Virus record (IMG/VR): IMGVR_UViG_3300021255_002539
Span: 128,001-192,000 of that record
Direction: 5' to 3' (one strand)
Origin: a virus
Taxonomy: Duplodnaviria; Caudoviricetes
DNA length: 64,000 nt
Part shown: piece after piece, positions 8,597 to 62,253 of the stretch
Layout: each line of letters begins with the position of its first letter
Position numbering within the stretch: the stretch's first letter is position 1
Notes under the pieces: generated by a model
Databases searched by the model: none
What the model saw: only the letters and a program-made list of their open reading frames with translations
Told to the model about the DNA's origin: nothing
Translations under genes and position numbers: made by a program

Positions 8597-8605
8597 GAAC
8601 AAACC

Positions 8606-9532
8606 ATGAAACTACCAACACTACTAACCACAACACTACTGGTATTCCTGCCATTCCTCCCACTGTGTGGTGGGGATTATCAGGCCAGGCTCACGATGGA
8701 GAACGACACCTTCCTGAAGAAGGACGACACCGACTACACGCACGGGACCAAGTTCGAGGTAATAGACCAAGAACGGGGACTGCACTACATGCTCCAATAG
8801 ACCATGTACTCGCCAAACGACCTGTCTCTGAAGCACCATGTCAAGGGGGATAGACCATATGCTGGCATGCTGATAGGTGGTGTTGGGTATGAGTTCTGGC
8901 AAGACGAGTCCAGTCCATGGTCGAACTATGGCGAGTTGGACTTTGGCGTGATTGGTCCTGCTGCTGGATGCAAGGAAACACAAACCTTCATACACAAGGT
9001 TCTGAACTGCCACAAACCCAATGGGTGGGACGATCAACTGCACAACGAGGTTGTTCTGAATGGACAGTGGTGGACAAAGTACAACTGGGATATATGCGAC
9101 TATGTTGCGTTTGTGCCAAAAGTCGGTGGTGCTGTCGGCAACATAGAGGACTTCGCTGAAATAGGTGCAGACTTGAAGATTGGATACAACATCAGAAGGG
9201 CAGCCAACAACGAGATCATGTTCTCCATGCCAGCACCCAGGGGAGTGGACGATCTTCTGTCCTGGAAGGAGAAGTTGTCCATATATGGTTATGTTGGCGC
9301 CAGTGAGAGGTTCTACCTGTACAACCACATGCTGCAGGGAAGTATGTTCAACAACAAGGACGACAAGCTAAAGGTCGACATAGAGAGGTTCGTAACAGAG
9401 GTCAGAGCTGGCATTGTCGCCCAATATGGCAGATTCTACATCATGTACTACGCCGTGTTCAGGACATACGAATACAAGCACCAGAAAAACCACCCTGACT
9501 TTGGTGGGATTGGAATAGGCTGGACATTCTAA
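8606..9532 (+). CDS. lpxR: LpxR-family lipid A deacylase (outer-membrane beta-barrel), 308 aa with TAG read as Gln
   Basis: Signal peptide, ENDTF..DTDYTHG, Q*TMYSP, DRPYAG, Q..IH..GWDDQL and a C-terminal Phe. TAG 8798 joins two in-frame ORFs. Confidence 0.8.
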
Positions 9533-9536
9533 ACCA

Positions 9537-10637
9537 TCAACGTTGCAGATTCAACTTCATCTTGATGCCAAATGCCGATGTGATCAACTTCCCCAACAGC
9601 TTCTCGTTGGTGAACACATCAAGTCTGTTGGTCTTTTTGGCAAAGTCGTTCAAGTCCTTCACCCCAGCAGCATCCAGAATCTGGTACATGTCCAGGAACA
9701 GAAGGTTTGGGTTCTTGTCAGCATGCTTCAATGCAGACTGGATGCCAGCTTCGTCGTTGTCGAACGCCAGCACAATCTTGTGCCTTGGATAGCAGCTCTG
9801 AATCATCTTCTCCTGATAGTCAGTGAGGTTTCTGCCCCCCAACGCAACGCCATTCTTGACGAACAACGAGTCGAACACGCCCTCGGTGCATATGACATAT
9901 GGGAACGATATGTCCACATTGCCCAAGTTGAACACTGGCTTTGACTGGAAATTGATGTTCTCGTCCTTTGGGAAGATGTACTTGGTGGCTCCTTGACCAG
10001 ATATGTCGTACTTGTTGAAGTTCGCCAACTGGTGGTAGATTGTCCTGTCCTCCCAGATGTACTGAATCAGAACGAACTCCCTTCCAGTGATGTCGTACAT
10101 CGACATGAACATGTCCCGTTTGTCTAGAGGGATCAACCTGGAGTCCAGATAGGAACTGGCTTCCTTGGACAATGGCTTTGCCGCCCATCCCATGTCCAGA
10201 AGGTACTTGTACGACGGATTTGGGGACAATATCTCGAAGTCGGGCTCAATCCCTCCTCCACCAATGGTGGCATCCCCATTCTTCCTCTGCCTCCTCACTA
10301 TGCGGTCGAAGTTCAGAACCTTGTAGTCCTGTATGATTTGGTTGAACACATCCGGGGCGCATATCGCCTTGAGCAACGCATATCCAGTGAGGTTGGCTTC
10401 ACAGTTGAAGCAATGGTATGTCCCAGTCTTTCGGTAGAAGTATCCCCGCTTCTTCAGCTTGTTCTTCTTGGAGTCCCCACAAATTGGGCAGCGGAAGACA
10501 ATCTCGGAGTTGTTGCGGGTCTTGAGAGACGAGGCAGGAAGGTACTCCCATACCTTCCCGTCAACATAGTTTATCCAAGATGTGTCGTTGAAGTCAAACA
10601 CAGCACCAATGTCACATATTGTCCCCAGGATACACAA
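9537..10637 (-). CDS. DNA primase, T4 gp61-like
   Basis: Zn finger CPICGDS..CFNC and TOPRIM motifs EGVFD, FDND and KDLND. Likely start is GTG 10601. Confidence 0.9.
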   Translation of the reverse strand: MCILGTICDIGAVFDFNDTSWINYVDGKVWEYLPASSLKTRNNSEIVFRCPICGDSKKNKLKKRGYFYRKTGTYHCFNCEANLTGYALLKAICAPDVFNQIIQDYKVLNFDRIVRRQRKNGDATIGGGGIEPDFEILSPNPSYKYLLDMGWAAKPLSKEASSYLDSRLIPLDKRDMFMSMYDITGREFVLIQYIWEDRTIYHQLANFNKYDISGQGATKYIFPKDENINFQSKPVFNLGNVDISFPYVICTEGVFDSLFVKNGVALGGRNLTDYQEKMIQSCYPRHKIVLAFDNDEAGIQSALKHADKNPNLLFLDMYQILDAAGVKDLNDFAKKTNRLDVFTNEKLLGKLITSAFGIKMKLNLQR

Positions 10638-11367
10638 CGAACCTCACCGCGAACACCTCGTCACCATCCTTGTCCTCCATCGTTGTGGGGAAGCAATAGA
10701 TGTTGGTGTAGCCAGTGTCCTTGAGGTAGTCCTCAATCTCCTGAACCACAGTTGGAGATGCGTTTACCTTGCTGGTGATGTATCCAAGCTCGTCGATGGT
10801 CTCAATCTTGGGAAATGTCTTGCCCTCGTTGACCGCGATTGTCATGGCATTCGGCGCGACCTCTATGTTGGAGGTGTCGAACACGATGGGCTGGATGGTC
10901 TGAATGAGGAATGTGAGGCGGTTTGCGATGAATACTGATGGATCCTTCGCAGGTACAGGCTCATCCTCGTCTTCCTCAATGTGCTTGTTGGCGACATTCT
11001 CCCTCTCAGCAAGCTTCTTGTCAATGATGTCACCAAGAAGCTTCTCCAACCTCTCGTCCCCATTCTCCAGCATCTCCAAGATGGACTTGGGTTCAGGCTT
11101 GGGTTTGGGTTGGGATGGGGTCTGCGTCCACTCGGGAACATCAACATTCGTCCGAACTTCCTTGCGCCAAGTAGGTTCCTTGGTCGGCTGCTCGTTGGGA
11201 CTGACATCGCAGTTGTTGTCGGGGTTGCGACTTCTCCTCGGGAAATAGACCCGTGTATGCGCAATGCCATCGTCATCCACAATGCGATTCGTATTGCGTT
11301 TTCCAAACAGACGTTCGACCAGTTCGTCAAATGCGCCGGTTCCTACAAAGTCAAGACTGTCAATCAT
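10612..11367 (-). CDS. Hypothetical protein
   Basis: 251-aa ORF with a Pro-rich linker, abutting the primase. Confidence 0.65.
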   Translation of the reverse strand: MIDSLDFVGTGAFDELVERLFGKRNTNRIVDDDGIAHTRVYFPRRSRNPDNNCDVSPNEQPTKEPTWRKEVRTNVDVPEWTQTPSQPKPKPEPKSILEMLENGDERLEKLLGDIIDKKLAERENVANKHIEEDEDEPVPAKDPSVFIANRLTFLIQTIQPIVFDTSNIEVAPNAMTIAVNEGKTFPKIETIDELGYITSKVNASPTVVQEIEDYLKDTGYTNIYCFPTTMEDKDGDEVFAVRFVVYPGDNM

Positions 11368-11408
11368 CGTGTGTTTCCTTTCCCTATATTATACAACTTC
11401 TTGGTTGG

Positions 11409-12116
11409 TCAGTAAATAGTCGTGGTCTGTCCCTTGGAATCCTTGAACTGAATCTGCTTGGACTCGGAACCATACCACTCGGTCTCGTATTCCTCGCCAT
11501 AGCCCCTGTCCTCCAGGTTATCCACATTCACATAGGAATAGGTCAGCTTCTTCTTGCCCTTGAGGTAGTCAAGAACCTTCTGGCACTTGTCCTTGTTCTC
11601 GGCATAGTACGAGTAGCTGCGGGAGAAGATTGAAGACCTCTTGCCAGCGACATCACAGTGATACCAATCCTTGAAGTTGATCTCGGAAAGACCAAGCGAC
11701 CTCAGCTTCTTGTTGATGGCCAGGAACTCCTTGCACGGACGAATCAGAAGTATCTTCTTCGTGATGTTGTACTTGTTGTAGTACCCGCTGTACCAAGCAC
11801 TCCCAACCCACTTGCTTTCCTCCCGAACATCGCGGTACAGGATTTCGTTCTTCTTGAGCTTGAACTTCGCGCAAATGGCGTCAGCAATCTGACAGGTGAG
11901 AGAACCAAACGCCTCGTCTGAGAGCTCCCCAAAGTCAACCTCGTCCTTGTGGCCAGAATGGAAGATGGTATGGACACCATTGAACTTGCTGGAACTCACA
12001 TGGTTGAAGTTCTTCGTGATGGAGATTCCAGAAGCCTCATGGTCAGACTTGAACTCCTTGATGAGACTTTTGGCGACGAACGCCACCTTTTCCTCTGTCG
12101 TTGCTGACTTCTTCAT
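11409..12116 (-). CDS. Hypothetical early protein
   Basis: Long ORF in the early operon, with RBS. Confidence 0.7.
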   Translation of the reverse strand: MKKSATTEEKVAFVAKSLIKEFKSDHEASGISITKNFNHVSSSKFNGVHTIFHSGHKDEVDFGELSDEAFGSLTCQIADAICAKFKLKKNEILYRDVREESKWVGSAWYSGYYNKYNITKKILLIRPCKEFLAINKKLRSLGLSEINFKDWYHCDVAGKRSSIFSRSYSYYAENKDKCQKVLDYLKGKKKLTYSYVNVDNLEDRGYGEEYETEWYGSESKQIQFKDSKGQTTTIY

Positions 12117-12142
12117 ATGTCTCAATCCTTCTTGTTTTGTTG

Positions 12143-12418
12143 TTAATGAATTTCGTTGTAGGTATGGCCAGCAGAATTGACCGCTATTCCAAGTTTGTCT
12201 GCGGAAACGCCCTTAATCCTCTCGTCTCCATAGGCTGATGCTATTTCATACCGCCCATTGTCGTCATCGACAACCCAATAGGGTGTCCATTCATAAGTGG
12301 AATCGTCGAACTTGAAGACCAACTGCCCAACAGACACCTTGTCCTTGAAGACCAAAGAGTTTCTACCGGACATTGACCACTGAAGTTCATCCCATGCCTT
12401 TGAACCTGGTATTGTCAT
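12143..12418 (-). CDS. Hypothetical protein
   Basis: GGAG RBS and ATG (MTIPGSK). Confidence 0.55.
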   Translation of the reverse strand: MTIPGSKAWDELQWSMSGRNSLVFKDKVSVGQLVFKFDDSTYEWTPYWVVDDDNGRYEIASAYGDERIKGVSADKLGIAVNSAGHTYNEIH

Positions 12419-12432
12419 TTCTACTCCTCCCA

Positions 12433-12711
12433 TCAACCAACCTTGACCTCGACAATCTTCGCCTTGAAGTACCAATCGTCCAGACCATTCTTGGCAGTGA
12501 CAATCACGCCCTCGGTCCCATCATCGTCCTTGTACTGCTCTGGGGCAAGGTAGTCGCCACACGCCAGACCATAGTTGTCAAGCTCGTCGTCGCAAAGCTC
12601 GAAGCAACGAACCAGAGCCTCGTCCTTGGTGTCGAAGTCGGTGATGACCTCCCTACCGGATTCAGTGGGATAGAGCCACTCGGCAACCACGATGTAGTAT
12701 TTGCTGCCCAT
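12433..12711 (-). CDS. Hypothetical protein
   Basis: AAGGAG RBS and ATG (MGSKYY). Confidence 0.6.
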   Translation of the reverse strand: MGSKYYIVVAEWLYPTESGREVITDFDTKDEALVRCFELCDDELDNYGLACGDYLAPEQYKDDDGTEGVIVTAKNGLDDWYFKAKIVEVKVG

Positions 12712-12722
12712 GTCGTTCTCCT

Positions 12723-13040
12723 TTACTTCCAAGAGATGATCAAGCTTGTGTTGCCATATCCATTGGGCGAAAGCCAATTCTTTTGTCTTGCAGAGAAGCC
12801 TTCACGGGAATAGTGCCGAATTGCCGCTTCTATCGAGGGGCCGCCATACCTATCACCAAGCACAGCCTCTTTGGTGTAGTAGTAGTTTGGTGACACCTCG
12901 CTCTCGCCATCTGCCGCAGCTTTCTCTATCATCTTGTCGATATGGCGGCGAAGCGCGCTGTCATTGAATTCCCTGTCTTCAATCGCTTCCTTGGAAGCAC
13001 GAGCGGTAGCGGTTTGGCTACGAAGTTCAGTAATGTTCAT
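12723..13040 (-). CDS. Hypothetical early protein
   Basis: First gene after the early promoter at 13080-13109; AAGGAG RBS. Confidence 0.65.
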   Translation of the reverse strand: MNITELRSQTATARASKEAIEDREFNDSALRRHIDKMIEKAAADGESEVSPNYYYTKEAVLGDRYGGPSIEAAIRHYSREGFSARQKNWLSPNGYGNTSLIISWK

Positions 13041-13070
13041 TGTCGTTCTCCTTGTTTCCTTGTCTCTCAC

Positions 13071-13115
13071 AACACCTATATTATAGCATATTCAGTGGTC
13101 AGATGTCAATACCCC
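13071..13115 (-). promoter_or_regulatory. Early promoter
   Basis: TTGACA 13104-13109, 18-bp spacer, TATAAT 13080-13085, same leader. Confidence 0.85.
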
Positions 13116-13129
13116 TTGGGGCAGAAACA

Positions 13130-13573
13130 TCAAGAGGCGAACTTCAGAACCCACTTGCAAAACCAGGAGTCGTCCTCCCAATCCTCAGCAATTTCGTCGT
13201 CGAACTCGTCGTCCGGGTCGTATGTGTTTGCCTTGACTTCGCTCGTAGAGACGGTTCGTGGTGATGCTGGCTCCCCATCAACATCGTAAATTTGCCTATC
13301 GTCCTCGTCTCCCTCAACTGTACCAATCTTCACGACTGCAGGCTTGTCAAGCATCTCCTCGGGGAGGCACTTCTCAATCTTCTCAACAATCAGCCCAACA
13401 TCAAGTCCCTCGTCGTCGTGCTGTCCAAGATGGAGAACGCCGTCATTGAACCAAATGTATTGAATTCCCCAACAAGGGGCTTCTGCTCCTTCCGCATAGG
13501 GCATTACTGCCGAGCACTGGTCGTCATAGTCCTTGAGCGACTTGATGAGTTCTCTGAATGTAAGATTGTTCAT
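13130..13573 (-). CDS. Hypothetical acidic early protein
   Basis: 147 aa with AGGAG RBS, after the promoter at 13636-13665. Confidence 0.65.
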   Translation of the reverse strand: MNNLTFRELIKSLKDYDDQCSAVMPYAEGAEAPCWGIQYIWFNDGVLHLGQHDDEGLDVGLIVEKIEKCLPEEMLDKPAVVKIGTVEGDEDDRQIYDVDGEPASPRTVSTSEVKANTYDPDDEFDDEIAEDWEDDSWFCKWVLKFAS

Positions 13574-13624
13574 TTCTCTGCTCCTTGTTATGATTTAGGC
13601 GTTGCTCAAGACCCTTTGTCTCTC

Positions 13625-13671
13625 ACAACACCCATATTATATCATATTCCAATTTCGGATGTCAATACCCC
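13625..13671 (-). promoter_or_regulatory. Early promoter
   Basis: TTGACA 13660-13665, 18-bp spacer, TATAAT 13636-13641. Confidence 0.85.
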
Positions 13672-13679
13672 TTGGGAGA

Positions 13680-14723
13680 TTACTTCTTGACGAGAACATG
13701 CATCCTCTCGTCGTTGTTGGAAAACATCAGTTTTCCACCATCCTCGTATTCGCCACCATTCGCTGCCCCATGGCATCGCTTTTTGTTGGTCATTGCCTCA
13801 ACGCAGACATGCTCAAACCCAATCTTCAGAGACTCGTAGAGGAAATCGCGCTCCAGTGGGTATATCTCGTTGGTCTTGTAGTCCCGGAACGACTTGACAT
13901 TGAATATGAAGTAGCCACCTTTGACGAGATACCTATGGCAGTTCTCCACAGTCTGGGGAATGAACCCATCTCGCCATTCATGATATGTCATTCCCTTCTT
14001 GTACGACTGCTCTTCCCCAATGCCATAGTCCTCAAGGGAGAAGTATGGTGGACTTGAGAAGCACAATCCCATCTTGTCCTCCCACTCGGGGACGAACACC
14101 TGGCTTCCCTGGCATCTGATGTCGCAAGTGGATGTGTTGTTAGCATTCACCCTCTTGTAGTCGTTGAACAGTGCATTCAACTGTGGAACCAGTTCAGTAT
14201 TGGGATCGGTGCCGAAGTAGTTGACATTGTTCTGAAGGGCGGCAAGCAACCTCGACCCCCATCCACACGAGTAGTCGTAGTAGTTGCCATTGACATTGTA
14301 CTTCTTCACTATCGAGGACGCCACCTTCATCGGAAAGTTTGGGAGCTTCACGCAATACCGTATTCCACACAACCTGAAGGCGGTCTCAATCTTCTTCGAC
14401 AAGGACATTGAATCTGGGAACACCTTCTTGTTGTCAGCAACCTTTCCCGCGAAGTACTCCATTATCTCCTTGTTGTGAATGCCATCCCAGATGGACCAGG
14501 ACGCCCTGGTACCCACGCACTTGGACATCACTTCCTTGAAGTAGAAGTCGTAGACGACATTCATCTTGGTCTTGCCTGAGGCAATGGTCTTCAGTTGCTT
14601 CTCCACCAGACCGAAGTCAGGCTTGGTGTAGTATTCCCTCGCAATTGACTCGAACTCCTCGTCCGTGAGGAGCTTCGAAATGGACGAGTTCTGGGAGATG
14701 CCCTTGTATGTTATCAATGCCAT
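13680..14723 (-). CDS. DNA amino-methyltransferase (N4-C/N6-A)
   Basis: SAM motif YDYSCGWGSRL and catalytic FSSPPYF. Confidence 0.8.
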   Translation of the reverse strand: MALITYKGISQNSSISKLLTDEEFESIAREYYTKPDFGLVEKQLKTIASGKTKMNVVYDFYFKEVMSKCVGTRASWSIWDGIHNKEIMEYFAGKVADNKKVFPDSMSLSKKIETAFRLCGIRYCVKLPNFPMKVASSIVKKYNVNGNYYDYSCGWGSRLLAALQNNVNYFGTDPNTELVPQLNALFNDYKRVNANNTSTCDIRCQGSQVFVPEWEDKMGLCFSSPPYFSLEDYGIGEEQSYKKGMTYHEWRDGFIPQTVENCHRYLVKGGYFIFNVKSFRDYKTNEIYPLERDFLYESLKIGFEHVCVEAMTNKKRCHGAANGGEYEDGGKLMFSNNDERMHVLVKK

Positions 14724-14801
14724 GACATGATCATTATACGACAAATGCCAACCCAATAATGGAGTCGGCATTGTCTATTTGCGCCATCTGAAATGGTCAA
14801 A

Positions 14802-15179
14802 TTACTTCGCGAGTGGATCAAATCCACCAGTTGGTTCACCCATCGCTGGCTTCGGTGGTTCAGTTGCAACTGGCTTGTCCGATGTTGCGTTGATGTTCTC
14901 GCTCAGCTTGAACATTGCCAACCGCTTGGACATGTTCATCAGGGCGATATCTGATTGCACGGAACGTACCAAAACTCCGGAATAAGCGTCCAAAAATTTC
15001 GAAAAATTCAAAAATTCGGCCGGTATGTCCGAAAGTCCGATGACCTCATAGAACTTCTTGATGAACTCCTGCTCGAACTGCTTGAACTTCGCCTCGTCTG
15101 AGCCAAAGCCCGTGGACTTTGCGATTTCAAGTGCTGTCGCGCTCATGTCGACCTTGTTGTTTTGTGCTGCTTCTGCCAT
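14802..15179 (-). CDS. Hypothetical protein
   Basis: 125 aa downstream of CGTATAAT at 15215-15222. Confidence 0.6.
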   Translation of the reverse strand: MAEAAQNNKVDMSATALEIAKSTGFGSDEAKFKQFEQEFIKKFYEVIGLSDIPAEFLNFSKFLDAYSGVLVRSVQSDIALMNMSKRLAMFKLSENINATSDKPVATEPPKPAMGEPTGGFDPLAK

Positions 15180-34637: not shown

Positions 34638-37600
34638 TCAATCAAACTTCGCCCAGGATGGTATGCTCCAGGACGGGTGGAACTCGTGGAACACCTCAAG
34701 GCATCTTCCAATCTCGTGTCTCGTGTCGGGGTTCTGCCACATGTCAGAATCCACAAGCGCGTCCCAGGCGTCCCTTGGAGTCAGTATGTCGTCGCTCGTG
34801 AGGGTCTTGTCGTTGTAGAGGAACTGCACTATCTCGTCGGGGTCGTTCGTGACAAGTTGCTTGTCCACCACGCTCCACTTCGCATATGTGCCGTTCTTCT
34901 TCTGTTTCCTGGCGCGCCGTATTCTGTACAACCCCACTCGGTAGTCGTAGTCGTACCTCGTCATCTCAACTGGTTGGTTCTTGCCCTCGCCTGGTATGTC
35001 GGCGGTGGCAGTGACCTCAACATGCCCGCCTCTCGCAATAGCTGTGAACAGTCCGTTTCTGAACCCACTCTTCGGATTCACATCTTCGTCAGCCTCGCCG
35101 TTCTATACCTCCTTCAGGTCAGGCGAGAACATGCCCCACTTGGTGAACTTCATGCTGGGGGTGAGGCACAGATCAACCTGGACATACTCCCCTTCCTGCT
35201 CCCCGTCCACATTCTCGATTGGAAACGCATACGATGTAGCAGTCCATCCGTCGTTCTTGTTTATGGAGTGGTCTACGCCCAGCCTGTCTGCCACATCGTA
35301 GCACAGGTCTATGAACTCCTCTGGGGTGTTCAGTCCATTGGCGTCAGCCAGAGCCTTCTGGTCTATGGCTATGTCCAGGTCGCCCGATGTTGGCTTCTTG
35401 CCAGCAGACCCAACCAGTTCTATGGAGCCGTCTGGGAGGCTGAACGCCTGTTTCAGCGCCTCAACAGCCTTCCTAGCGGTCTCTGGTATGTTCGCCTTGT
35501 TAATCCTAGTTGTCTGCACCTTCTTGAAGTGCTTGTCTCCACTTTCGTTCGTCATCTTCGCCTTCCTATTCTACTGTCCTGCGTTGAACTTGTCTGCCCT
35601 CGCTTGGTCTGTCATGGATGGGTAGTCCCCACTCTCTGGGTTCATCAACTTGTACACTTCGTCGAATTGCTGGTCGGACAGTTCAGATGGAAGCACCTTT
35701 TTCAACGCCTCCTTGTCGTCAATGTGGTCTCTCACATAGGTCGCTGATATGTTGGAATCCCCATCTGTGGTCGCGTTGATTGCGTTCTCCTCTATTGGCA
35801 ATATCTCCACATTCTGAAGTGTGTCCTTGAATCTGTCGGTCGTAAATGCACTGAACCTGGACATGTCGTCCTTCTTGGACAACCCAAACATGACCTTGCA
35901 GTTGGAGAAGTGGCGCACAGTTGCAGAAATCCAATTCATCGGGTTCAGTGTCATCGCAATCTGAACATTGTCCAAATGGGCAGCCTCACAATATATCTCC
36001 AGAATCTCGCCAGCCACGAAGTTGGGCATGGAGCGCCCGAACTTGTCGTATCTTTGGGACGCGACATTCGTTTGCCCAGACACAGCGACAATCACTTCGT
36101 CGCATATCTCGGCATAGTGCCTTATCATGTCGAGGTGTCCCTTGTGTGGCGGTCTGAACGAGCCAGGAATCAGCGCTATCGTCTTGCCATTCTGGTCCAC
36201 GACCTTGCCATCCACCATCTCCACGAGGGACATCACATCGTTCGTGAGCAGGTTGGGGTCGAACCTCTTCGGAAGACCTTCCGCCCTCGCCTTTGAAATC
36301 TTGTCTATGAACCTGGGGAGGTCTGTCCTTCCCTTCGCGTGCGCAGCCAGTTCTTGTGCTCTGTCTATGTACTTGGGCAACAACTCCTCGTACTTCGTCT
36401 GGTACTCCTGTGGGTTCTACCGTATTGCGTTCACCATGGCGACCAGGCTCCCCTTCTCGCTCTTGCCAGTTATCGCCGACAGAAACCTCTTGGTGAAGTC
36501 CGACATCTCGTCTATCTCAGAGAAGTAGCCATTTCTGATGTCCTTCCAAGATTGGTAATGTATGCCATACAGGTTGCCCTTCAACTCAAACGCAACTCCC
36601 TCCAAAGAACCATCGTCTGCCTTCATTATGTCGGGGTTCTTGAACTTGCGCTTCATTATGTCAGTGAGGGCGGCGTTTATCTTGTCCCTGAGCTCCTCTG
36701 CCTCCTGCTTCTTCATCTTGTCTATGGTTGCTGTATTGAAAGCCTCAACCACATCATCTCCAAAGTCCTGTGCCTTGAGTTCCACCTCCTGCGCGAACTT
36801 GTTGATGTCGAAGTAGGATGCGTTGGCGTCTGACAGCTATGAGCAGGCGAAGTCCACGACCTTCTTCTTCGTTTCTGGCTCCAGGTCAAACGCCTTTTCC
36901 TTCGTCATCCCCTTCACATCAATTATGACCAGTGAGCCACGTCTGCCCAGTTTCTTTGCGTCGTAGGTGGTTCCGACATAGGTTATGGTGCCATCGTCGT
37001 CTGCGAACTCGTCGCCGTTGGAGAGCAGTTCACCAACCAACTTCACGCCATCCAGACCCAACCCCTTCACGAACTTCGCCATCTTCTCGTTTTGGTTTTC
37101 CTCCACATAGGTGAAGAAGTTCAACTCGTGGTCGTGCACCTGTGGCGTGGCTTCAGCACCTTGTCTGTCGAGCAATCCAGAATACGAAATCTCCATCAGA
37201 ACCTTGCCATCCAGCCAAGCCACCCTGAACGGGTAGCCGTCAATCTTTGGCGTGACCTTCACAATCAGCGTGGAGTCGTTGACGCTCGATATGAAGTCGT
37301 GCAAGAATTGCCTCAATTGCTTCCCTGTGAGTTGGTGTATCTTCGTCATTGCCTGGCGTGGCGTGTCTATCTCTGACATGTCCTTGGTGCTGCCGATGGA
37401 CTCGTCGACCTCCTGTGTTGTGTAGTCAGATGCCTTTAGCCCAAGGAAGTCCTCTAGTTCAGGTGGAATGTAGTCTATGTTGCCTTTCTTCAGAGGCCGT
37501 TCCAGTCCAGTTCTGAGAGACTTCTTGAACTGCTCCATCCTCACCGGGTTCTTCAATATGCCTTGCTTCTTCACTGCGTTCCAAGCATCTTGCCAAGTGA

Positions 37601-39437
37601 GCATGTTGGCAGAATCAACTCCAAACAGAATCTCGCATATCTCGTCTGGGTCGTCGGTCACCAATTCCCTGCCAACTTCCTTTTCGCCCGAGACATGGAT
37701 TCCCTCTTCTCCCTTCTTGCCCTTCATCAAAGGACGCTCAAATGTCTTCTTGAACAAACCACCTTCTTCATGTGTATAGGAATATCTTTCCCATTTGGTT
37801 GGTTGTTCCTCGTCTCCCATTCCATTGACAAGTCCAGTGTCAAGAACCCTGAATCCAGACACCCTTGCTGCTGCAGTGATTATCTGATTTCTCACCAGAC
37901 CCTTGACATACTGCTCACCCTCCACTTCTTGTGGACCGAATTGCCCCCACGCCTGGAACTTGAGGTTGTCCACTGGGATGAGGTCCAGCTGCACCACTTG
38001 ACCTTCCTGCTCTCCATCGTCGTTGCTGATTGGGTAGCCAACGGATGTTCCCTGCCACTCCCATCTCGGAAAGTTCTTCACCTCAAGCCCGTACTTCCTG
38101 CCGAACTCGTCGGCGAGGTCGAACCACTCTGAGACATCTGTTATGCCATGCTTCTGCTCCAGCGCCTGTTTGGATATCGCTATGTCGATGTCTCCGCTTG
38201 AGCCAGAATCCAGCTTCTTCCCCGTTGAGCCAAGAAAGGACACCTCGTCCTCAGACAGACCAAAGAAGTCCAGAACCTTCTGCTTCGCCGAGTCCATGGT
38301 GGACTTCGCGTTGCGCTGGTTCAGCCTTACTGCTCCTGGTATCCTCTTGCCACCCTCCTTCACCAGGGTGCTTTCGGTAACGGGCCTCCCATGACCATCT
38401 GGTCCGTCTGGGTCTGGCTTCTCTATCCCCAGCTCGTCCAACATCTCCTGTGGCATCTCCAATCCGTCGTTGATTCTATCGAGCAGCTTCTTCTTCATCG
38501 AGTCCACGAAGATCTGCCACTGCTCTGGGTTCTTTGCCCATTCGGCATCGTGTGCTGCCCTCCAGCATCCATCCCAGGTGAGCAAGTCCTTTCCCTTCAC
38601 CTTTGGTCCGAACATCAGCTTCGCAATCTTGTCAGGGTCGTCAGAAACCAGAGTGCGCTTTGTCCTGGACTTGTCCAGACCCTGGTTGTACACAGGACCC
38701 TCCACGCCGTCTGGGAGGTTCTTTGGCTGGTTCTTCATCAGAGACCGCTCCTTGTGCCACTTGTTCAGACCCTCAGGGGTGAAGAACACATACTCCTCCC
38801 AGACCACGGGCTCCTCCACGAATCCTCCATCCTTCTTCACAGTGCCAGTCTTCAGCACCTCCATCTTCTGCATGGCGTGGGAGGCAGCCTCAAGAACCAG
38901 GTTCCTTATCACGCCCTTGATGTACTTCTGTCCAGCAATCTCCTTTGGCGCGTACCTGGACCAGGCCTAGAACTTCATGTTGGTCGTTGGCATGAGGTCT
39001 ACCTGAACGAACTGACCCTTCTGCTTTCCATCGAAGTTCACAATAGGAACCCTTATGGAGAACTGCTCAACCTGGAAATTGTGCTTCAGACCCAACTTGT
39101 CCAGTATGGGTGATGCGTACTGGTTGAACTCGTACGGCTTCCTCGCAAATTCGTACTTGTTCGCGTCAATGCCAATGTCGAGGTCGCCAGATGTGGAGCC
39201 TGGCAGCTTCTTCGTGACAGAGCCAACTGGTTGCGTGTCCTTTCTGTCGATTCCCAGAGCAGGAAGTATCTCGTCGTAGATGTACTTCAGCGTTGCGGCC
39301 ACATTCTCCTGGTTTATCCTGACTGTGTCGTCGAACATCTTTCCACTTTCAAGCAACAACTCCTTGGTTTCGCCAACCAGGATTGTCCTCAAGTCGTCAG
39401 CACTCATTTCACCAACTACATCTTCTATGTTGTTCAT
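34638..39437 (-). CDS. 1599-aa polyprotein: 3 Pol-beta-type nucleotidyltransferases, a KxDG ligase-like domain and an HxGH nucleotidyltransferase (5 TAG read as Gln)
   Basis: Six ORF-track fragments share one frame, separated only by TAG at 38967, 36837, 36417, 35571 and 35103. Motifs: GS..K..SGD(L/I)DI..Q(V/L)DL three times, TPKIDG..EGVAF, and PGSFRPPHKGH. Confidence 0.85.
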
Positions 39438-57172: not shown

Positions 57173-57973
57173 TTAGTTGAGTTCAATGTCCTGAAAGATT
57201 TCCTCTGGCTTGGTCTTGAATTCCACTGCGTTCATCCTGTCCTGAATCTTCCTCAATGTCTCCACAGGAAGCACATCAATTGGATTGGGGCAACCCTTGA
57301 AATTTCCACGAATCACGGTGTCGAGGTCGTCATAGCTGAACCCAATCTTGTCCTCGTCGGTCTGCTCGGAAAGACCATCTGCCGGGGTCTTTTCGACGAG
57401 ATACCTTGGGATTTCAGGCATTGTAAGTCCAATTGCCACGACCTCGTTCTTGGTGAGTCTTATCAGTGGTTTGAGGTCTCCTGCAGAATCTCCGTTCTTG
57501 GTGAAGTAGCCCGTGAGGAATTCACTGAGGTTGCTGGTGTTGACCACCCTTCCCCCAATCGTCTGACTCACGGCATACAATGTGGTCATGCGAAGCCTTG
57601 GGGCGAGGTTGATTGTGGTCTGGGAGGACAGCCCCTTCGTCCAATCAAGTTTCTCTGCCAAGTTGAGATCCACTTCAGAGCCAATGGCGTTGTAGGCCGC
57701 GTTGATGTTGACGATGATGTACTTGATTCCAAGCGAATTGCACACTGCAATGGAGTCTCCAATGTCCTTCTGTGTTCCGTTTGGCATCAACACACCAAGA
57801 ACCTTGTCCTTGCCCAATGCCCTAGTACAAAGACCAGCTACAATCGTGCTATCCTTGCCTCCACTGATTCCAATGACCGCGTACTTGTCCTTGCCATTTC
57901 GGTCGAACCAATCCCTGAGCCAGCTCACGAGGTTGTCTCTCGTCTTCTCTGCGTTGAAGTAATTCATGTTCAT
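57173..57973 (-). CDS. nadE: NH3-dependent NAD+ synthetase
   Basis: VIGISGGKDS, N..PRLRM..LY, NLSE..GYFTKNGD, P..LTK.EV, PADGL..TDED..GFSY..LD. Confidence 0.93.
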   Translation of the reverse strand: MNMNYFNAEKTRDNLVSWLRDWFDRNGKDKYAVIGISGGKDSTIVAGLCTRALGKDKVLGVLMPNGTQKDIGDSIAVCNSLGIKYIIVNINAAYNAIGSEVDLNLAEKLDWTKGLSSQTTINLAPRLRMTTLYAVSQTIGGRVVNTSNLSEFLTGYFTKNGDSAGDLKPLIRLTKNEVVAIGLTMPEIPRYLVEKTPADGLSEQTDEDKIGFSYDDLDTVIRGNFKGCPNPIDVLPVETLRKIQDRMNAVEFKTKPEEIFQDIELN

Positions 57974-57974
57974 T

Positions 57975-58160
57975 TTATTTTGTCTCCTTTGTCCAAGTTG
58001 TTCTCCATTTTCTGTCCTGGTTTGGAAATGGGCTACTGCCACGTTCAATCCAGGTTTCAATTTTCAATTCGTATCCTCTTTTGACCATTGATACAACGAA
58101 GTCAATTTCATTCATGATTTCGTATGCCAATCCATTTGCCAATTCTTGTTCAACATCCAT
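57975..58160 (-). CDS. Small hypothetical protein
   Basis: GGAGG RBS; tightly packed in the operon. Confidence 0.5.
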   Translation of the reverse strand: MDVEQELANGLAYEIMNEIDFVVSMVKRGYELKIETWIERGSSPFPNQDRKWRTTWTKETK

Positions 58161-58161
58161 T

Positions 58162-58467
58162 TCAGACCTCCTTGATGTGAACCACGAAGTCGAACATTTC
58201 TCCGACATGTAGGAAATACTTGTCTCGGTTCGCTTGGGTTTCTCTCCTATAGGTTGTGAATGGGATGTCCTTGTCTCCCAAGAATACGCACTGGATGTAG
58301 TATTCGCCCATCTTGAACTCGTACAGTCCATCGGTGTCGTACTCCAATGCCTCCTTGGAGAAGGTATTGTCAATCTTCACCAGTTCGGCATGAACGAGCT
58401 TCCCGCTTCTCTGCCCATGAAGCTTGGTATAGTCGTGGTTGAACATCACTATGTGTTTGTCGTCCAT
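58162..58467 (-). CDS. Hypothetical protein
   Basis: 101 aa with RBS, tightly packed. Confidence 0.6.
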   Translation of the reverse strand: MDDKHIVMFNHDYTKLHGQRSGKLVHAELVKIDNTFSKEALEYDTDGLYEFKMGEYYIQCVFLGDKDIPFTTYRRETQANRDKYFLHVGEMFDFVVHIKEV

Positions 58468-58468
58468 T

Positions 58469-58687
58469 TCAGTTTCTCCTTCCTTCTACTGGTGCTTCCA
58501 TCTTCCTTCCACATCCAGGGCAATACCTGTAGGTTTCGTGGAAGGTCTGGATTTTCTTCTGCGCCTCGTTGGTGCAGTCCCAATCCGTGTATTCCATGAA
58601 CCCACAATTGGAGCAGGTGGCATACTCGTATTCAATGGACTTCCAATATGCGGAAGGAATGTCGCTGATGTACAAATCGTTGTCCAT
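58469..58687 (-). CDS. Small Zn-ribbon protein
   Basis: CSNCG..YCPGCGRKM. Confidence 0.65.
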   Translation of the reverse strand: MDNDLYISDIPSAYWKSIEYEYATCSNCGFMEYTDWDCTNEAQKKIQTFHETYRYCPGCGRKMEAPVEGRRN

Positions 58688-58688
58688 T

Positions 58689-60161
58689 TCACACTCCCTT
58701 GTTGATTCTGTCCCGGATTTCGGCGAAGGTGGTCTTGTTGAGCATCACGCCATCCTTGAACACAGTCTTGAGCGCGCTGGCGGTCTCGTTGAGCATCTTG
58801 TCGTGTTCATCGGTCTCGAACAGGTTGCCATTGCTGTCCCTCATGACCCAAACGATTCCCTTGTGGCTCTTCTTGAGCTTGCCGGTGTCGGTCTTCGGGT
58901 CCTTGTAGATGAAGTGGAACTGGCCATTGGTGACGCCAGCACAAGCCTTGGCCGCGATTCCAAAGGTATCTCGGGTGTTGACAATCAACTTCTCGTTGTC
59001 GAAGATCGCGCTGAAGCAAAAGGCACCCACGCCAAAGCAGACATTGTTGGCTGCGAACCCATGCTTCTCCATCCAATCCCAAATCTTGCGCACTGTGAAG
59101 AGTGTGCATCCATCGCCCAGGATGATTCTGATGTGGGGATCCAGGACGCTATAACCCTTGCTGTTCTCCTCTCCACCGAACTCGTCCCAAAGCATTTCGA
59201 GGGTCTTGGTCACTGTCTCAAACTGGTCTCCCGAATCCGGGCGGATTAGGAGCGTCCCATTGTGCTTGAGGATTTCACCCTTGAGCGCAGGGATGATGTT
59301 CTCGACCAGGTTCCAGTAGTCGTAGGTGTCCGAAACCATGCTGAACGAGGTGTTGGGGTAGATCTCGGTTAGCATGCGCTTGATGAAGGTCACTTCGTCC
59401 CCATCAATGGCGTAGTTGCTTGCCATCACACTGTGTTCAGTCGAGACAGCACCCTGACCAATCTTGGTGTTGCTCACATCGGCTTCGTAATACTTGTCGA
59501 TGTAGGGAAGCGCCGGGATTGTACTGGTCTTGTTGAAGCAAGTAAGCCAGGCAGCCGAGCACCTAGCGGCTTCGTTCGTGCAGCTCATTCCCCTCATGCC
59601 AAAGTCCGACATGGCGTTCTTGGGGTCGCAATTTGGGTCGCAGGTCCTGTCGTAGTATTCCTTCGCCAGCTCCAGGTACATCTTGGAAATGGTGGCGTGG
59701 TTGCAGGTCTTCCAGAGTTCGGCCTGCAGGATGCACTCAACCCACTGGACGAGCCAAGCGAAGTGATCGTTGGTGTTCGTGATTTCGATGCAGGGGATGC
59801 CCATGTTCACCGAAGTTCCCTCGGGGATTGCCCGAATCTGAAGTGGGAGGTAACCCAGCCTGTGGAGGTCGATGATATTCGTGGTTGCGTATCCCCCACC
59901 AGGAAGCTGAACCTTCATGTACTTCTCGTATTCGGCTATGACTTCGTTGATTTCGCGGTCAAAGAAGTTCTCCTTGAAGTAGTCCACCAGGAACTCCTGA
60001 ATGAAAGCCTGAAGCCCGAAGAACACCATCTTGTCGCAGGTCTTGAGCATGGATTTCCTGGGAGTCCAATAGGAATAGAGTTTCGTCAACCCAGGGTTGT
60101 ATTGAAGAATGTGGCAGAACTTGTAAGTGTCGGCCAAAAGCATTGCGTTTGTCTTAATCAT
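58689..60161 (-). CDS. Nampt/NadV-fold phosphoribosyltransferase (Namat-like), predicted to prefer nicotinate
   Basis: ADTYK..H..QY, FFGLQ, DFGMRG, TEHSVM, SMVSDTYD, IRPDSGD, GDG, FGVG, RDT, KDPKTD..KKS.KG. Ser at the NAMPT Asp219-equivalent position. Confidence 0.9.
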   Translation of the reverse strand: MIKTNAMLLADTYKFCHILQYNPGLTKLYSYWTPRKSMLKTCDKMVFFGLQAFIQEFLVDYFKENFFDREINEVIAEYEKYMKVQLPGGGYATTNIIDLHRLGYLPLQIRAIPEGTSVNMGIPCIEITNTNDHFAWLVQWVECILQAELWKTCNHATISKMYLELAKEYYDRTCDPNCDPKNAMSDFGMRGMSCTNEAARCSAAWLTCFNKTSTIPALPYIDKYYEADVSNTKIGQGAVSTEHSVMASNYAIDGDEVTFIKRMLTEIYPNTSFSMVSDTYDYWNLVENIIPALKGEILKHNGTLLIRPDSGDQFETVTKTLEMLWDEFGGEENSKGYSVLDPHIRIILGDGCTLFTVRKIWDWMEKHGFAANNVCFGVGAFCFSAIFDNEKLIVNTRDTFGIAAKACAGVTNGQFHFIYKDPKTDTGKLKKSHKGIVWVMRDSNGNLFETDEHDKMLNETASALKTVFKDGVMLNKTTFAEIRDRINKGV

Positions 60162-60177
60162 TGTCTTGTTCTCCTTT

Positions 60178-61020
60178 TTAGAATTCACGAATAATCTTGA
60201 TCTTGTTGCTGGCAACCTGTACACGGAAGATGGAGTTGGTGGCGTAGATGGTCTTGATGAGGTCTCCCTGAATCAGCTTGCCCTTCTCCTTGTCCATTAC
60301 CGAGTTCTCAAGGTGGGTGACATAGCAGGAGATGTCGTTTGCCCCCTTGTCCTTCAACGCGCAGGCCGAGTAGTAGAATGTTCCACCATAGGCGCAAATG
60401 TCGTCAATCATGAGGATGTTCTTGCCCTTGAGGTCGTCGTAGCCAGCAATGTCGATTCCCAGAATCTTCCCGGTCTTCCAATCGCGCTTCTTGATGCCAA
60501 ACGCGACTGGCAATTCGAGGAACGAGAGCAGGTCACTATACCTCTTGCAAGCACCTTCATCGGGGAAGTAGAGAACCACATCTCTATCGGTTGCGGCGAA
60601 GTGAAGAGCCATCTGGACATCCTCGGCCACGCAGTCGAAGTCAACGGACACCCGGTCGAACAATGCCTCGCTTACAGTGCTGTGGGGGTTGCAGATGGTG
60701 ACGCCCTCGAACCCAAGCCAGTTGATGGTCTCGGCGAACGCCTTGAGGGTGAATACCTCGTCCGAGTTCTTGACCCTGTCCATTCTGGCGTTGGGGACAT
60801 AGGGAAGTTTGAGCCAAATTCTGCACCTTGCCTTGCTCTTGAGGTGCTTGACGAGCGCAATGAGCTGGAACAGCTCGGAGTCGTTGTCGTAAAGCCATGT
60901 GATTCTGTATGCCCCATCCACGAAAGTGGGGTTGTACTTGATGAGCTTCGTCCCATCGGGGAATGTCGTGGGGTTGAGCATCACCGTGTTCTGGTTGTTC
61001 AAATCTTCTACTTTAATCAT
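60178..61020 (-). CDS. Prs-like pyrophosphokinase (Adps-like)
   Basis: FPDG, PYVPNARMDR, NPHS, PDEGA..RY, KKRDWKTGKI, IDDICAYGGTF, YVTH; directly upstream of the Nampt-like gene. Confidence 0.9.
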   Translation of the reverse strand: MIKVEDLNNQNTVMLNPTTFPDGTKLIKYNPTFVDGAYRITWLYDNDSELFQLIALVKHLKSKARCRIWLKLPYVPNARMDRVKNSDEVFTLKAFAETINWLGFEGVTICNPHSTVSEALFDRVSVDFDCVAEDVQMALHFAATDRDVVLYFPDEGACKRYSDLLSFLELPVAFGIKKRDWKTGKILGIDIAGYDDLKGKNILMIDDICAYGGTFYYSACALKDKGANDISCYVTHLENSVMDKEKGKLIQGDLIKTIYATNSIFRVQVASNKIKIIREF

Positions 61021-61045
61021 AGTGATTTCCTCGCTTCCTTGATTT

Positions 61046-61083
61046 GCCTATATTATATCATATTTTGGTTGATGTTGTCAATG
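61046..61083 (-). promoter_or_regulatory. Early promoter driving the prs-like to nadE operon
   Basis: TTGACA 61076-61081, 18-bp spacer, TATAAT 61052-61057. Confidence 0.8.
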
Positions 61084-61120
61084 TGGTTCGTTGGTTTTTA
61101 TCACAATGGTTTTGAACGAA

Positions 61121-61567
61121 CTAGAATATGGTGGTTATTGCATCGTCCGTGATGTTTGTTGTATGATCGTTGTCCTTTTGCACCACAAAATTTAATGTTT
61201 GGTTTAGTGTATTGAGTTTTGTGATGCGACAGCCATTGTCCATCAAATCCTGCAACACTTCAAATACCAATCCCGCATCAGTGGTTCTTTTTTGGTATAT
61301 GACGAATTTGGCGCAGAAGTTTTCTGTTATTCTGTTCACGCACATGTATTCACACCCCTTGAAATGCCTTTTGAATTTTTTAATCATCTTGGGCATGTCA
61401 AAGCCGCCATCCTCGTAGTCTTCAGGATACAACCAAAACTCCTTGCTAGTATCTATGTCAATCTCATTGGGATTTGTGAATTTTGGCAAGAAGTCAGTAT
61501 ACCAGTTCATGGTTTGTGCTACAGAAGTCATGTTGCATTTCCTTTCTGTTAGTTCAAACCACTTCAA
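61121..61567 (-). CDS. Hypothetical protein (ends at TAG)
   Basis: 148-aa AT-rich ORF overlapping the pncA end; read-through would extend it into the promoter. Confidence 0.5.
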   Translation of the reverse strand: MKWFELTERKCNMTSVAQTMNWYTDFLPKFTNPNEIDIDTSKEFWLYPEDYEDGGFDMPKMIKKFKRHFKGCEYMCVNRITENFCAKFVIYQKRTTDAGLVFEVLQDLMDNGCRITKLNTLNQTLNFVVQKDNDHTTNITDDAITTIF

Positions 61568-62099
61568 TCTGGCACATTTCCATCGTCTTGAGGGCAGCTT
61601 CGTGGCTTTCAGGGGTGACGCCAGCAGTGCAATCCCTCAATACCTTGATGGTGCTGTTGGGGAAGCTTGCCCTGATGAGCAAGGCATTGGAAACCACGCA
61701 AATGTCGGTGCAGAATCCAACAATCGTGAATTCATAGTCTTCCTTGGGGTAGTGGGTCGCCGAGAGGTTGTTGACCATCCAAGCCGAGCCAAATGTCTCC
61801 TTCTCGAATCTGTCGGTCAGTTTGCCAACCAGTGCCTCGCCAAGTTCGCTTGGCATCTCCCATCCCCAAGTTCCCTTGATGCAGTGCTCTACAGGGAGTT
61901 TGCTTCCCTCCAGGGTCTTCGTTAGGTAGGTGTCCTTGTCGTGGGTGTCCATCGTCGCGTAAATCTCGTCCCAATCGCTGTTCTTGACGAGGTTGACGAT
62001 GTTGGGCAGTTTCTTGATTGCCTCTTCGTTGCGCAATGCGCCTGTGATGAAGTCGTTCTGGACATCAATCACCAATAGTATCTTTTTCTTCGTTGCCAT
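61554..62099 (-). CDS. pncA: Nicotinamidase
   Basis: VIDVQNDF, DTH, PVEHC..GTWG, KETFG and GFCTDICV (Asp-Lys-Cys triad plus metal ligands). Confidence 0.9.
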   Translation of the reverse strand: MATKKKILLVIDVQNDFITGALRNEEAIKKLPNIVNLVKNSDWDEIYATMDTHDKDTYLTKTLEGSKLPVEHCIKGTWGWEMPSELGEALVGKLTDRFEKETFGSAWMVNNLSATHYPKEDYEFTIVGFCTDICVVSNALLIRASFPNSTIKVLRDCTAGVTPESHEAALKTMEMCQIEVV

Positions 62100-62253
62100 A
62101 ATGGAAATTCCTCCATTGTTTTGGTTGTTATAGATGCCACCACAATCCCGTGGTGGAATCACATCATTGTAATTATACAATATTTACTCAGAAAAAGCAA
62201 GGGGGTCTGGAAAAATTTCCAAACCCCTTCGTTATATGCCCAGTGTGTGGTTT

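Follow-up and report, generated by a model that had tools for sequence, protein, structure and literature searches.

In this work, we describe a group of genes of a gut-type phage that most likely represents an undescribed variant of the phage counter-defence pathway NARP1. The genes lie on the minus strand, from position 62099 to position 57173, of a 64,000-nucleotide window, which covers bases 128001-192000 of a virus record (IMGVR_UViG_3300021255_002539) that is 414,060 bp long and carries direct terminal repeats. Four of them encode enzymes: a nicotinamidase (PncA), a homologue of ribose-phosphate pyrophosphokinase (Prs) that resembles the ADP-ribose pyrophosphokinase Adps, a Nampt-fold transferase that resembles Namat, and an NH3-dependent NAD synthetase (NadE). 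Depletion of nicotinamide adenine dinucleotide (NAD+) is among the commonest anti-phage strategies of bacteria, which phages are known to counter mainly by NARP1. Based on our data, we give a probability of about 0.57 to the reading that these genes form an early-expressed counter-defence operon, which rebuilds NAD+ through deamidated intermediates after the action of host NADases such as those of Thoeris, SIR2, DSR and TIR systems.

In the proposed pathway, host NADases would split NAD+ into ADP-ribose and nicotinamide, and PncA, judging from its family and its conserved catalytic residues, would convert nicotinamide to nicotinate. The Adps-like enzyme, which is bracketed phylogenetically by validated Adps enzymes, would use ADP-ribose and ATP to make ADP-ribose pyrophosphate (ADPR-PP). 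The Namat-like transferase would then join nicotinate to ADPR-PP, yielding nicotinate adenine dinucleotide (NaAD) and pyrophosphate; for this step, the base is strongly and the donor moderately indicated. Finally, NadE would convert NaAD to NAD+ with ATP and ammonia, as suggested by its family and by its similarity to archaeal enzymes specific for NaAD. Making NaAD directly from ADPR-PP appears to be the most parsimonious mechanism for these sequences, and we consider it somewhat better than an even bet. No paper combining ADPR-PP with nicotinate, NaAD or a nicotinamidase was found in the searchable literature.

The choice of nicotinate as the pyridine base is suggested by the pocket of the transferase. 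The stretch WLTCFNKTSTIP of the window aligns with HLVNFKGTDTVA of human NAMPT and LLSFTGTDTIPA of the SPbetaL1 Namat, the motif reading FNKTSTIP in the window, FTGTDTIP in the SPbetaL1 Namat and FKGTDTVA in human NAMPT. This alignment to solved structures verified the claim of an earlier note on this DNA (hereafter the original prediction) that Asp219 of human NAMPT, equivalent to Asp215 of Namat, is replaced by Ser. It also revealed a second pocket change that the original prediction did not contain, from Ala242, a nicotinamide contact, to Ser. In the numbering of the window protein, the two positions are S213 and S240. In crystals of the SPbetaL1 Namat, Asp215 hydrogen-bonds nicotinamide, and the activity of the D215A mutant is reduced approximately 8-fold (PMC12774641). 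In human NAMPT, D219S switches the substrate and D219A is inactive (review table in PMC4919578, citing Khan 2006).

We surveyed these two positions in 244 loci drawn from three sets with 8-kb flanks (80 viral loci near the window transferase, 80 viral loci near the SPbetaL1 Namat and 80 prokaryotic loci), scoring the presence of PncA and NadE with hidden Markov models that were built from PncA and NadE matches and run on six-frame translations. Among the 101 loci with Ser215 and Ser242 (hereafter SS), 93 had PncA and 93 had NadE, and among the 58 with Ala215 and Ser242 (hereafter AS), the numbers were 53 and 27, respectively. Neither gene was found in any of the 85 loci with an acidic pocket (Asp or Glu215 with Ala242). 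Ser or Ala at position 215 was accompanied by Ser242 without exception (159/159), with PncA in 146 and NadE in 120 of these loci, and many of the misses fall at contig ends. A separate census of sites found Ser at position 215 in all 102 SS loci and Ala in the 58 AS loci. Since both substitutions co-occur with PncA and NadE, with no exception encountered in phages or on Clostridium chromosomes, there is strong backing for a switch to nicotinate in place of nicotinamide as the base, which agrees with the earlier proposal that the change from Asp to Ser marks nicotinate use. The combination of residues at positions 215 and 242 (acidic with Ala, or Ser/Ala with Ser) also provides an easy criterion by which these enzymes can be sorted. 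A distinct Namat subgroup, found in loci L130-L157 and L170, including that of the crAss-like Bacteroides phage DAC17, has Glu215 (GSET) and KSRD in place of STRD; Adps is present in these loci, and PncA and NadE are absent.

That the four genes form one functional unit is well supported. All of them were found on the minus strand at the positions originally given, and family searches support their identities. The order pncA-adps-namat-nadE was kept in 80 of 80 close viral relatives, wherever the contig extends far enough, in line with the original view of the module as real. Part of that view has to be amended: the four enzyme genes are not contiguous, as an ORF (open reading frame) of approximately 136-148 codons follows pncA and three small ORFs lie between the transferase gene and nadE. 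Among 50,697 GenBank phage records, we found Adps homologues in 1468 and Namat/Nampt homologues in 2044, but NadE in only 42 records and this type of PncA in only 7. All 7 are gut-metagenome phages, including phAss-1, in which the genes form the same block. A DNA-level comparison with GenBank phages gave a single weak match (MT835544).

The same genes also occur in bacteria. In loci L191-L251 of our survey, dozens of Clostridium species carry adps, pncA, namat and often nadE (for example C. beijerinckii in L193, C. manihotivorum in L226 and C. carboxidivorans in L233), frequently on large scaffolds or complete chromosomes. Their transferases have Ala215 and Ser242 with a canonical clamp around the adenine, and are 55-61% identical to the SPbetaL1 Namat. 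The gene order is adps-pncA-namat-nadE in Clostridium, compared with pncA-adps-namat-nadE in phages. It looks as if a bacterial version of the nicotinate-type pathway has become fixed in these species.

The Prs-like protein has the characteristics of an Adps rather than of a canonical Prs. It scored below the curated cut-offs of every canonical Pfam and NCBIfam Prs model that it matched, and the residues R87, H121, D161, K185, D212 and D213 (numbering of the ICP1 Adps) are invariant in the alignment of Adps-like proteins. Its PP loop (DDICAYGGT) follows the Adps pattern, unlike the DDxIDTxGT of canonical Prs, and the same loop variants were found with acidic, AS and SS partners. In our phylogeny, the Prs-like proteins of the module form a clade (support 93) that is sister to the clade of the SPbetaL1 Adps. 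The two together make up a 37-row clade with a support of 99, with the ICP1 Adps outside it and the Escherichia coli Prs on a branch of length 2.35. The AS transferases of Clostridium are paired with Adps genes nested in the SPbetaL1 Adps clade. With ribose-5-phosphate, the SPbetaL1 Adps did not yield any product (10.1101/2024.02.11.579819).

A source of ADP-ribose is also suggested by the neighbouring genes. A macro-domain ORF is present in 70 of the 102 SS loci and can be aligned over the full length with the Adpp of Vibrio phage Gary. Adpp is a validated ADP-ribose-1''-phosphate phosphatase that feeds ADP-ribose to NARP1 (10.64898/2026.01.28.702374). NADAR and Tpt1 are likewise found, in 33 and 23 SS loci, respectively. 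In L027 (positions 9969-15066) and similar loci, Tpt1/KptA, the Adpp-like macro domain, a YAcAr (SLOG) protein and NADAR lie between the transferase and nadE. The genome of the window has a macro-domain ORF of 156 aa (G000:C1:217459-217839), approximately 25 kb past the window end, which shares 29% identity with its Adpp-like counterpart in L027 (E 5.7e-11).

The transferase itself falls on the Namat side of its family. Its nearest solved structure is the SPbetaL1 Namat (9w5w/9w5x, E 2.5e-106), human NAMPT matching at approximately 1e-56. An AlphaFold 2 model of the protein (mean predicted local distance difference test score 94.4) had Namat as its top Foldseek match, with a template modelling (TM) score of approximately 0.9 and a root-mean-square deviation of 1.6-2.2 Å. 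In the tree, it falls among the Namats linked to Adps and is split from the Nampts of the NARP2 type (RB43, a KVP40-like phage and CcrPW) at 100% support; the non-acidic transferases form one clade (support 99), apart from the long-branched phAss-1. A phylogeny against Adps, Namat and NadV had been suggested with the original prediction, and the positions of both proteins in the two trees support the kinship with NARP1, rather than with ordinary Prs and NadV, that it had proposed. The Namat catalytic core (D13, Y15, F189, R192, H245, R306, D308, T398, R399 and D400) is invariant in both the alignment and the site census.

The part of the transferase that would hold the adenine of the donor has been changed in the SS enzymes. 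The clamp residues of the window protein are M38, G188, G351, A380, F381, F383 and V394. The third residue of SCL, which in NARP1 is an Arg, Lys or Tyr stacking on the adenine, is Met in 98 of 102 SS loci. The SCH region of the window reads GAFCFS, an insert of nine residues and VNTRD, so that Phe is kept at position 3 and Val stands at position 7, past the insert, in departure from the NARP1 motif. According to the structural model and its DSSP assignment, the insert of 9-10 residues found in SS transferases forms a beta-hairpin at residues 385-394. As a result of the substitutions and the insert, the published clamp signature is lost; what persists is Phe392, another aromatic residue and a long SCL loop, the length of the latter being Namat-like and not Nampt-like. 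Data on double mutants of Namat hint that losing R40 and Y396 alone costs only approximately 2.4-fold (PMC12774641). By comparison, the 58 AS enzymes differ from the canonical Namat at the two pocket residues only, keeping R40, S190, S391, Y/F392, Y394 and Y396. AS transferases occur on Clostridium chromosomes, in Oscillospiraceae and in phAss-1, with PncA adjacent and NadE present or not. On the tree, the SS form is derived from AS forms, with its partners unchanged throughout. In L027 (positions 8004-9953) and approximately 30 other SS loci, the Namat-like protein has a C-terminal extension of approximately 154 aa with a DVDG motif and sub-threshold matches to HAD phosphatases (Pfam E 0.04-0.1).

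Several observations weigh against the proposed pathway. On the donor side, S190G, A362G, S391A, Y394F and the insertion are found in 102 of 102 SS loci, R40M in 98 and Y396V in 100. Gly190 and Gly362 also occur together in phage Nampts that use phosphoribosyl pyrophosphate (PRPP), and Ala391 with Gly362 in the NadV of Haemophilus ducreyi. Regarding the pocket, the tree implies no more than one or two origins of the non-acidic form, so that the association of this form with PncA and NadE reflects long co-retention and not repeated convergence, and permits no independent-contrast test; this co-retention spans divergence down to approximately 40% identity, phages and bacterial chromosomes, and two gene orders. 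Moreover, compared with canonical NARP1, the proposed route consumes double the ATP, a cost for which no advantage is apparent. Finally, adenylyltransferases are not absent from these phages. A nicotinamide mononucleotide adenylyltransferase (NMNAT) of the NadM type is encoded in 16 of 102 SS loci, proteins with a PF01467 domain were found in the whole records of 5 of 10 relatives, and the genome of the window encodes an HxGH nucleotidyltransferase domain outside the cluster. The latter is the sole PF01467 match in the 414-kb genome (window 35643-36305), and lies approximately 22 kb from the cluster within a recoded polyprotein of 1599 aa. Only its HxGH region matches (GSFRPPHKGH ... ISATYVRD), and since phosphopantetheine adenylyltransferases fit about as well as NMNATs, we did not adopt it as an NMNAT. 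The original prediction that the cluster has no NadD or NMNAT was correct, and its claim that the route needs no adenylyltransferase applies to the cluster itself; it does not extend to every SS locus, nor to the remainder of the genome.

The main rival explanation is that the genes act in a salvage similar to the Preiss-Handler pathway. In that case, the Prs-like enzyme would make PRPP, the transferase would use it with nicotinate supplied by PncA to make nicotinate mononucleotide (NaMN), and the NadD of the host or a NadM or HxGH domain of the phage would produce the NaAD on which NadE acts. The residues that SS enzymes share with PRPP-using Nampts and with the H. ducreyi NadV, as well as the loss of R40 and Y396 from the clamp, could be understood in this way. 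In addition, PRPP can be used by Namat in vitro (PMC12774641), archaeal NadM accepts NaMN (PMC3376133), host NadD is universal, and the NadM-type gene of L027, the one such locus examined, encodes 191 aa and directly follows nadE. On the other hand, the Prs-like gene falls inside the Adps clade, near an enzyme that does not use ribose-5-phosphate, and has an Adps-like PP loop instead of the canonical DTxGT. The ancestral AS forms have a complete adenine clamp, and the SS form itself retains a long SCL loop and two aromatic SCH residues that are absent from Nampts. Furthermore, Adpp-like phosphatases, present in 69% of the SS loci, make sense only if ADP-ribose is consumed, and 5 of the 10 records of relatives, all of them at least 94% complete, contained no PF01467 adenylyltransferase. 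We therefore regard the salvage through PRPP as possible but rather unlikely, and ADPR-PP as the likely, though not settled, donor of the SS subtype. The reaction of ADPR-PP with nicotinate to NaAD that had originally been proposed thus keeps the support of an Adps-clade partner, an intact clamp in AS enzymes and nearby Adpp-like genes, and is weakened by the rebuilt donor side of the SS enzymes.

Two further explanations were considered. NaMN might be formed as in the salvage just described and converted by NadE, acting as a nicotinamide mononucleotide (NMN) synthetase, to NMN, from which a NadM-type adenylyltransferase would make NAD+, as in Francisella. The Francisella NadE (3fiu) is indeed the second-best solved relative of the window NadE, and NadM-type genes exist in some relatives, in L027 directly after nadE. 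However, the window NadE is nearer to the archaeal type (2e18, its nearest solved relative) than to that of Francisella (140 versus 101 bits), and the archaeal type showed no NMN synthetase activity in Methanocaldococcus jannaschii (PMC3376133). In addition, NadM is missing from the window and from most loci, and deamidation followed by re-amidation would bring no apparent gain, which makes this route improbable. It is even less probable that the locus is an ordinary NARP1 acting on nicotinamide, and that PncA and NadE either just happen to lie beside it or separately boost the Preiss-Handler pathway of the host. Such a view agrees with the published surveys, which define NARP1 by the proximity of an Adps and a Namat gene and would count loci like this one as ordinary NARP1 (10.1101/2024.02.11.579819). 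Nevertheless, the amide-binding Asp is gone in 159 of 159 such loci, D215A and D219A enzymes are impaired or dead with nicotinamide, PncA and NadE stand beside Asp/Glu-type Namats in 0 of 85 loci, and a nicotinamidase made by the phage would destroy the substrate of that very enzyme.

On balance, we lean towards the reaction of ADPR-PP with nicotinate to NaAD and pyrophosphate in a Ser pocket which, together with PncA, Adps and NadE, would constitute a deamidated NARP1, widespread in TAG-recoded and other gut phages, fixed in Clostridium, and with the clamp of the SS enzymes rebuilt around a hairpin. The original suggestion that NaAD resists the defence NADases is speculation.

Compared with the known NARP1 systems of SPbetaL1, Bas63, ICP1, FADO and Paenibacillus foliorum (10.1101/2024.02.11.579819, PMC12774641, PMC13586617), the module has the same adjacent genes of the Adps and Namat clades, the same catalytic residues in both enzymes, the same transferase fold (TM approximately 0.9) and presumably the same role against NAD+-depleting defences. 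It differs from them in having Ser at the positions of Asp215 and Ala242, Met in SCL instead of Arg, Lys or Tyr, an SCH motif broken by the nine-residue beta-hairpin, PncA and NadE as obligatory partners, and NaAD rather than NAD+ as the predicted product. With NARP1-AP, in which NARP1 is combined with the macro-domain phosphatase Adpp (10.64898/2026.01.28.702374), most SS loci (70/102) share an Adpp-like gene within the cluster; the window cluster has none, its macro gene being elsewhere in the genome, and the predicted base chemistry is different. NARP2 of Vibrio phage KVP40, made up of Nampt/NadV and a bifunctional NMNAT-Nudix protein, also restores phage NAD+ with a Nampt-fold transferase. 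Its Nampts, however, keep the Asp, have a Gly-rich SCH equivalent without aromatic residues (GGGLLQ) and a short SCL, and are partnered by an NMNAT rather than a Prs-like protein. The window transferase shows none of these Nampt/NadV traits: the Asp is lost, the SCH equivalent is aromatic, the loop is long, the protein falls outside the Nampt outgroup (100%) and no NMNAT is found in the cluster.

A nicotinamidase, an NAD synthetase and deamidated intermediates are also features of the bacterial Preiss-Handler pathway (PncA, PncB, NadD and NadE). Unlike in that pathway, the transferase of the window belongs to the Nampt/Namat subfamily and not to PncB, no NadD is present in the cluster, and an Adps-like enzyme replaces the housekeeping Prs. 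A parallel among described phages is phAss-1 (OQ749652, 'Caudoviricetes code 15 clade'; PMC10607447), a TAG-recoded gut phage in which the genes of a nicotinamidase, a Prs-like protein, a Nampt-like protein and NadE form a single block. No pathway is mentioned in the searched passages of its description; in contrast to the window, the phAss-1 transferase has Ala215, and its SCH motif is canonical.

The features of the locus are listed in table 1.

Table 1. Features of the NAD+ module and its upstream region, in order of transcription (window coordinates)
Feature	Coordinates	Strand	Description
Terminator-like hairpin followed by a T run	62202..62227	-	11-pair stem with 6 G-C pairs; closes the upstream gene and precedes the pncA promoter region
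Candidate sigma-A/sigma-70 promoter of pncA	62173..62200	-	TTGCTT, 17-nt spacer, extended -10 TGTATAAT; -35 below scanner threshold, read by eye
pncA, nicotinamidase	61554..62099	-	181 aa from ATG at 62099; Pfam PF00857 Isochorismatase, E 1.9e-19
ORF, function unassigned	61121..61567	-	148 aa from TTG, approximately 136 aa from first ATG; in closest relatives only
Sigma-70-type promoter match of the Adps-like gene	61052..61081	-	TTGACA, 18-nt spacer, TATAAT with upstream TG; 12/12; 32 nt before the start
Adps-like Prs homologue, predicted ADP-ribose pyrophosphokinase	60178..61020	-	280 aa; PHROG 619 'ribose-phosphate pyrophosphokinase', E 4.9e-65
Namat-like Nampt-fold transferase, SS subtype	58689..60161	-	490 aa; PHROG 448, E 1e-159; NCBIfam PRK09198, 454 bits, above cut-off
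Zinc-ribbon ORF	58469..58687	-	72 aa; ATG shortly after the transferase stop; two CxxC pairs
ORF, function unassigned	58162..58467	-	101 aa; in 5 SS-type loci, one possibly the window itself
ORF, function unassigned	57975..58160	-	61 aa; in 3 SS-type loci, one possibly the window itself
nadE, NH3-dependent NAD synthetase	57173..57973	-	266 aa from ATG at 57973; AAGGAG ribosome-binding site upstream; Pfam PF02540 NAD_synthase, E 1e-49

The nearest solved structures of the PncA protein are the nicotinamidases 1im5, 2h0r and 3pl1, and in the alignment with 1im5 of Pyrococcus horikoshii the Asp/Lys/Cys triad and the Asp-x-His...His metal site are all retained. NadE scored 162 bits against TIGR00552 (cut-off 63.65); it consists of a single synthetase domain without a glutaminase domain and keeps the SGGxDS ATP-pyrophosphatase motif as GISGGKDS. 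The Adps-like and Namat-like genes are separated by 17 nt. Family searches with the ORF that follows pncA gave no match; it has a 97% identical copy in L006 and is found in two SS-type loci, one of them possibly the window itself. The zinc-ribbon ORF gave weak, sub-threshold Pfam matches to zinc ribbons, including that of NADH pyrophosphatase (NudC, E 0.0019), and occurs in five SS-type loci, one of which may again be the window. The stops and starts of the three small ORFs almost abut, and we preferred this tightly packed arrangement to an alternative ORF of 132 aa (57975-58373), which was dropped.

Consensus host-type promoters, strong Shine-Dalgarno sites and the lack of in-frame TAG codons fit early expression of the module. 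The original prediction of sigma70-type promoters is borne out by the perfect match before the Adps-like gene and by the extended -10 candidate before pncA. As a rough estimate, a 12/12 match is expected approximately 0.002 times in the stretch, while the total of promoter-like sites in the stretch is not above chance. A GGAGGA ribosome-binding site precedes the ATG of pncA, and AGGAG-type sites were found upstream of the transferase gene and nadE. Copies with 55-63% identity come mostly from assemblies of Lachnospiraceae, Roseburia, Ruminococcus and other Bacillota. Together with the sigma-A-type promoters and the AGGAG sites, they suit a host from the Bacillota.

As had been claimed, the module lacks TAG: we counted no in-frame TAG in the genes of PncA, the Adps-like enzyme, the transferase and NadE, which end in TGA, TAA, TGA and TAA, respectively. 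By contrast, the frame of 1599 aa situated approximately 20 kb from the module (window 34638-39437, minus strand) can be read through only when its five TAG codons are taken as sense. At the rate of that gene, the four enzyme genes would together contain approximately 4 TAGs (P approximately 0.02, a rough estimate), and their absence is suggestive of early expression. The upstream neighbour of the module, which runs on the minus strand from window position 62700 onward and past the window end, is a frame of approximately 1679 aa with five in-frame TAGs if TAG is sense, so that the TAG-free module adjoins a recoded gene. ARAGORN predicted 28 tRNAs and no clear CTA suppressor among them. In the whole window, the frequency of the trinucleotide TAG on each of the two strands is only 0.35-0.43 of that expected. 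Gene calling by ORF length is unreliable in this genome owing to its many long antisense ORFs, and a genome-wide longest-ORF census with TAG read as Gln was discarded because antisense ORFs outgrow real genes, as in the case of a 542-aa ORF opposite the transferase.

If the proposed pathway is true, the transferase would catalyse a new enzyme reaction, in which NaAD is made directly from activated ADP-ribose, providing a second chemistry for NAD+ repair. Phages would then be able to run NAD+ repair through the deamidated branch that is used by most Bacillota. A sizeable share of the loci currently scored as NARP1, or annotated as nicotinamide phosphoribosyltransferase, would need to be re-annotated. 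Moreover, the chromosomal operons of Clostridium suggest that the same chemistry may serve the ordinary recycling of ADP-ribose and nicotinamide in bacteria.

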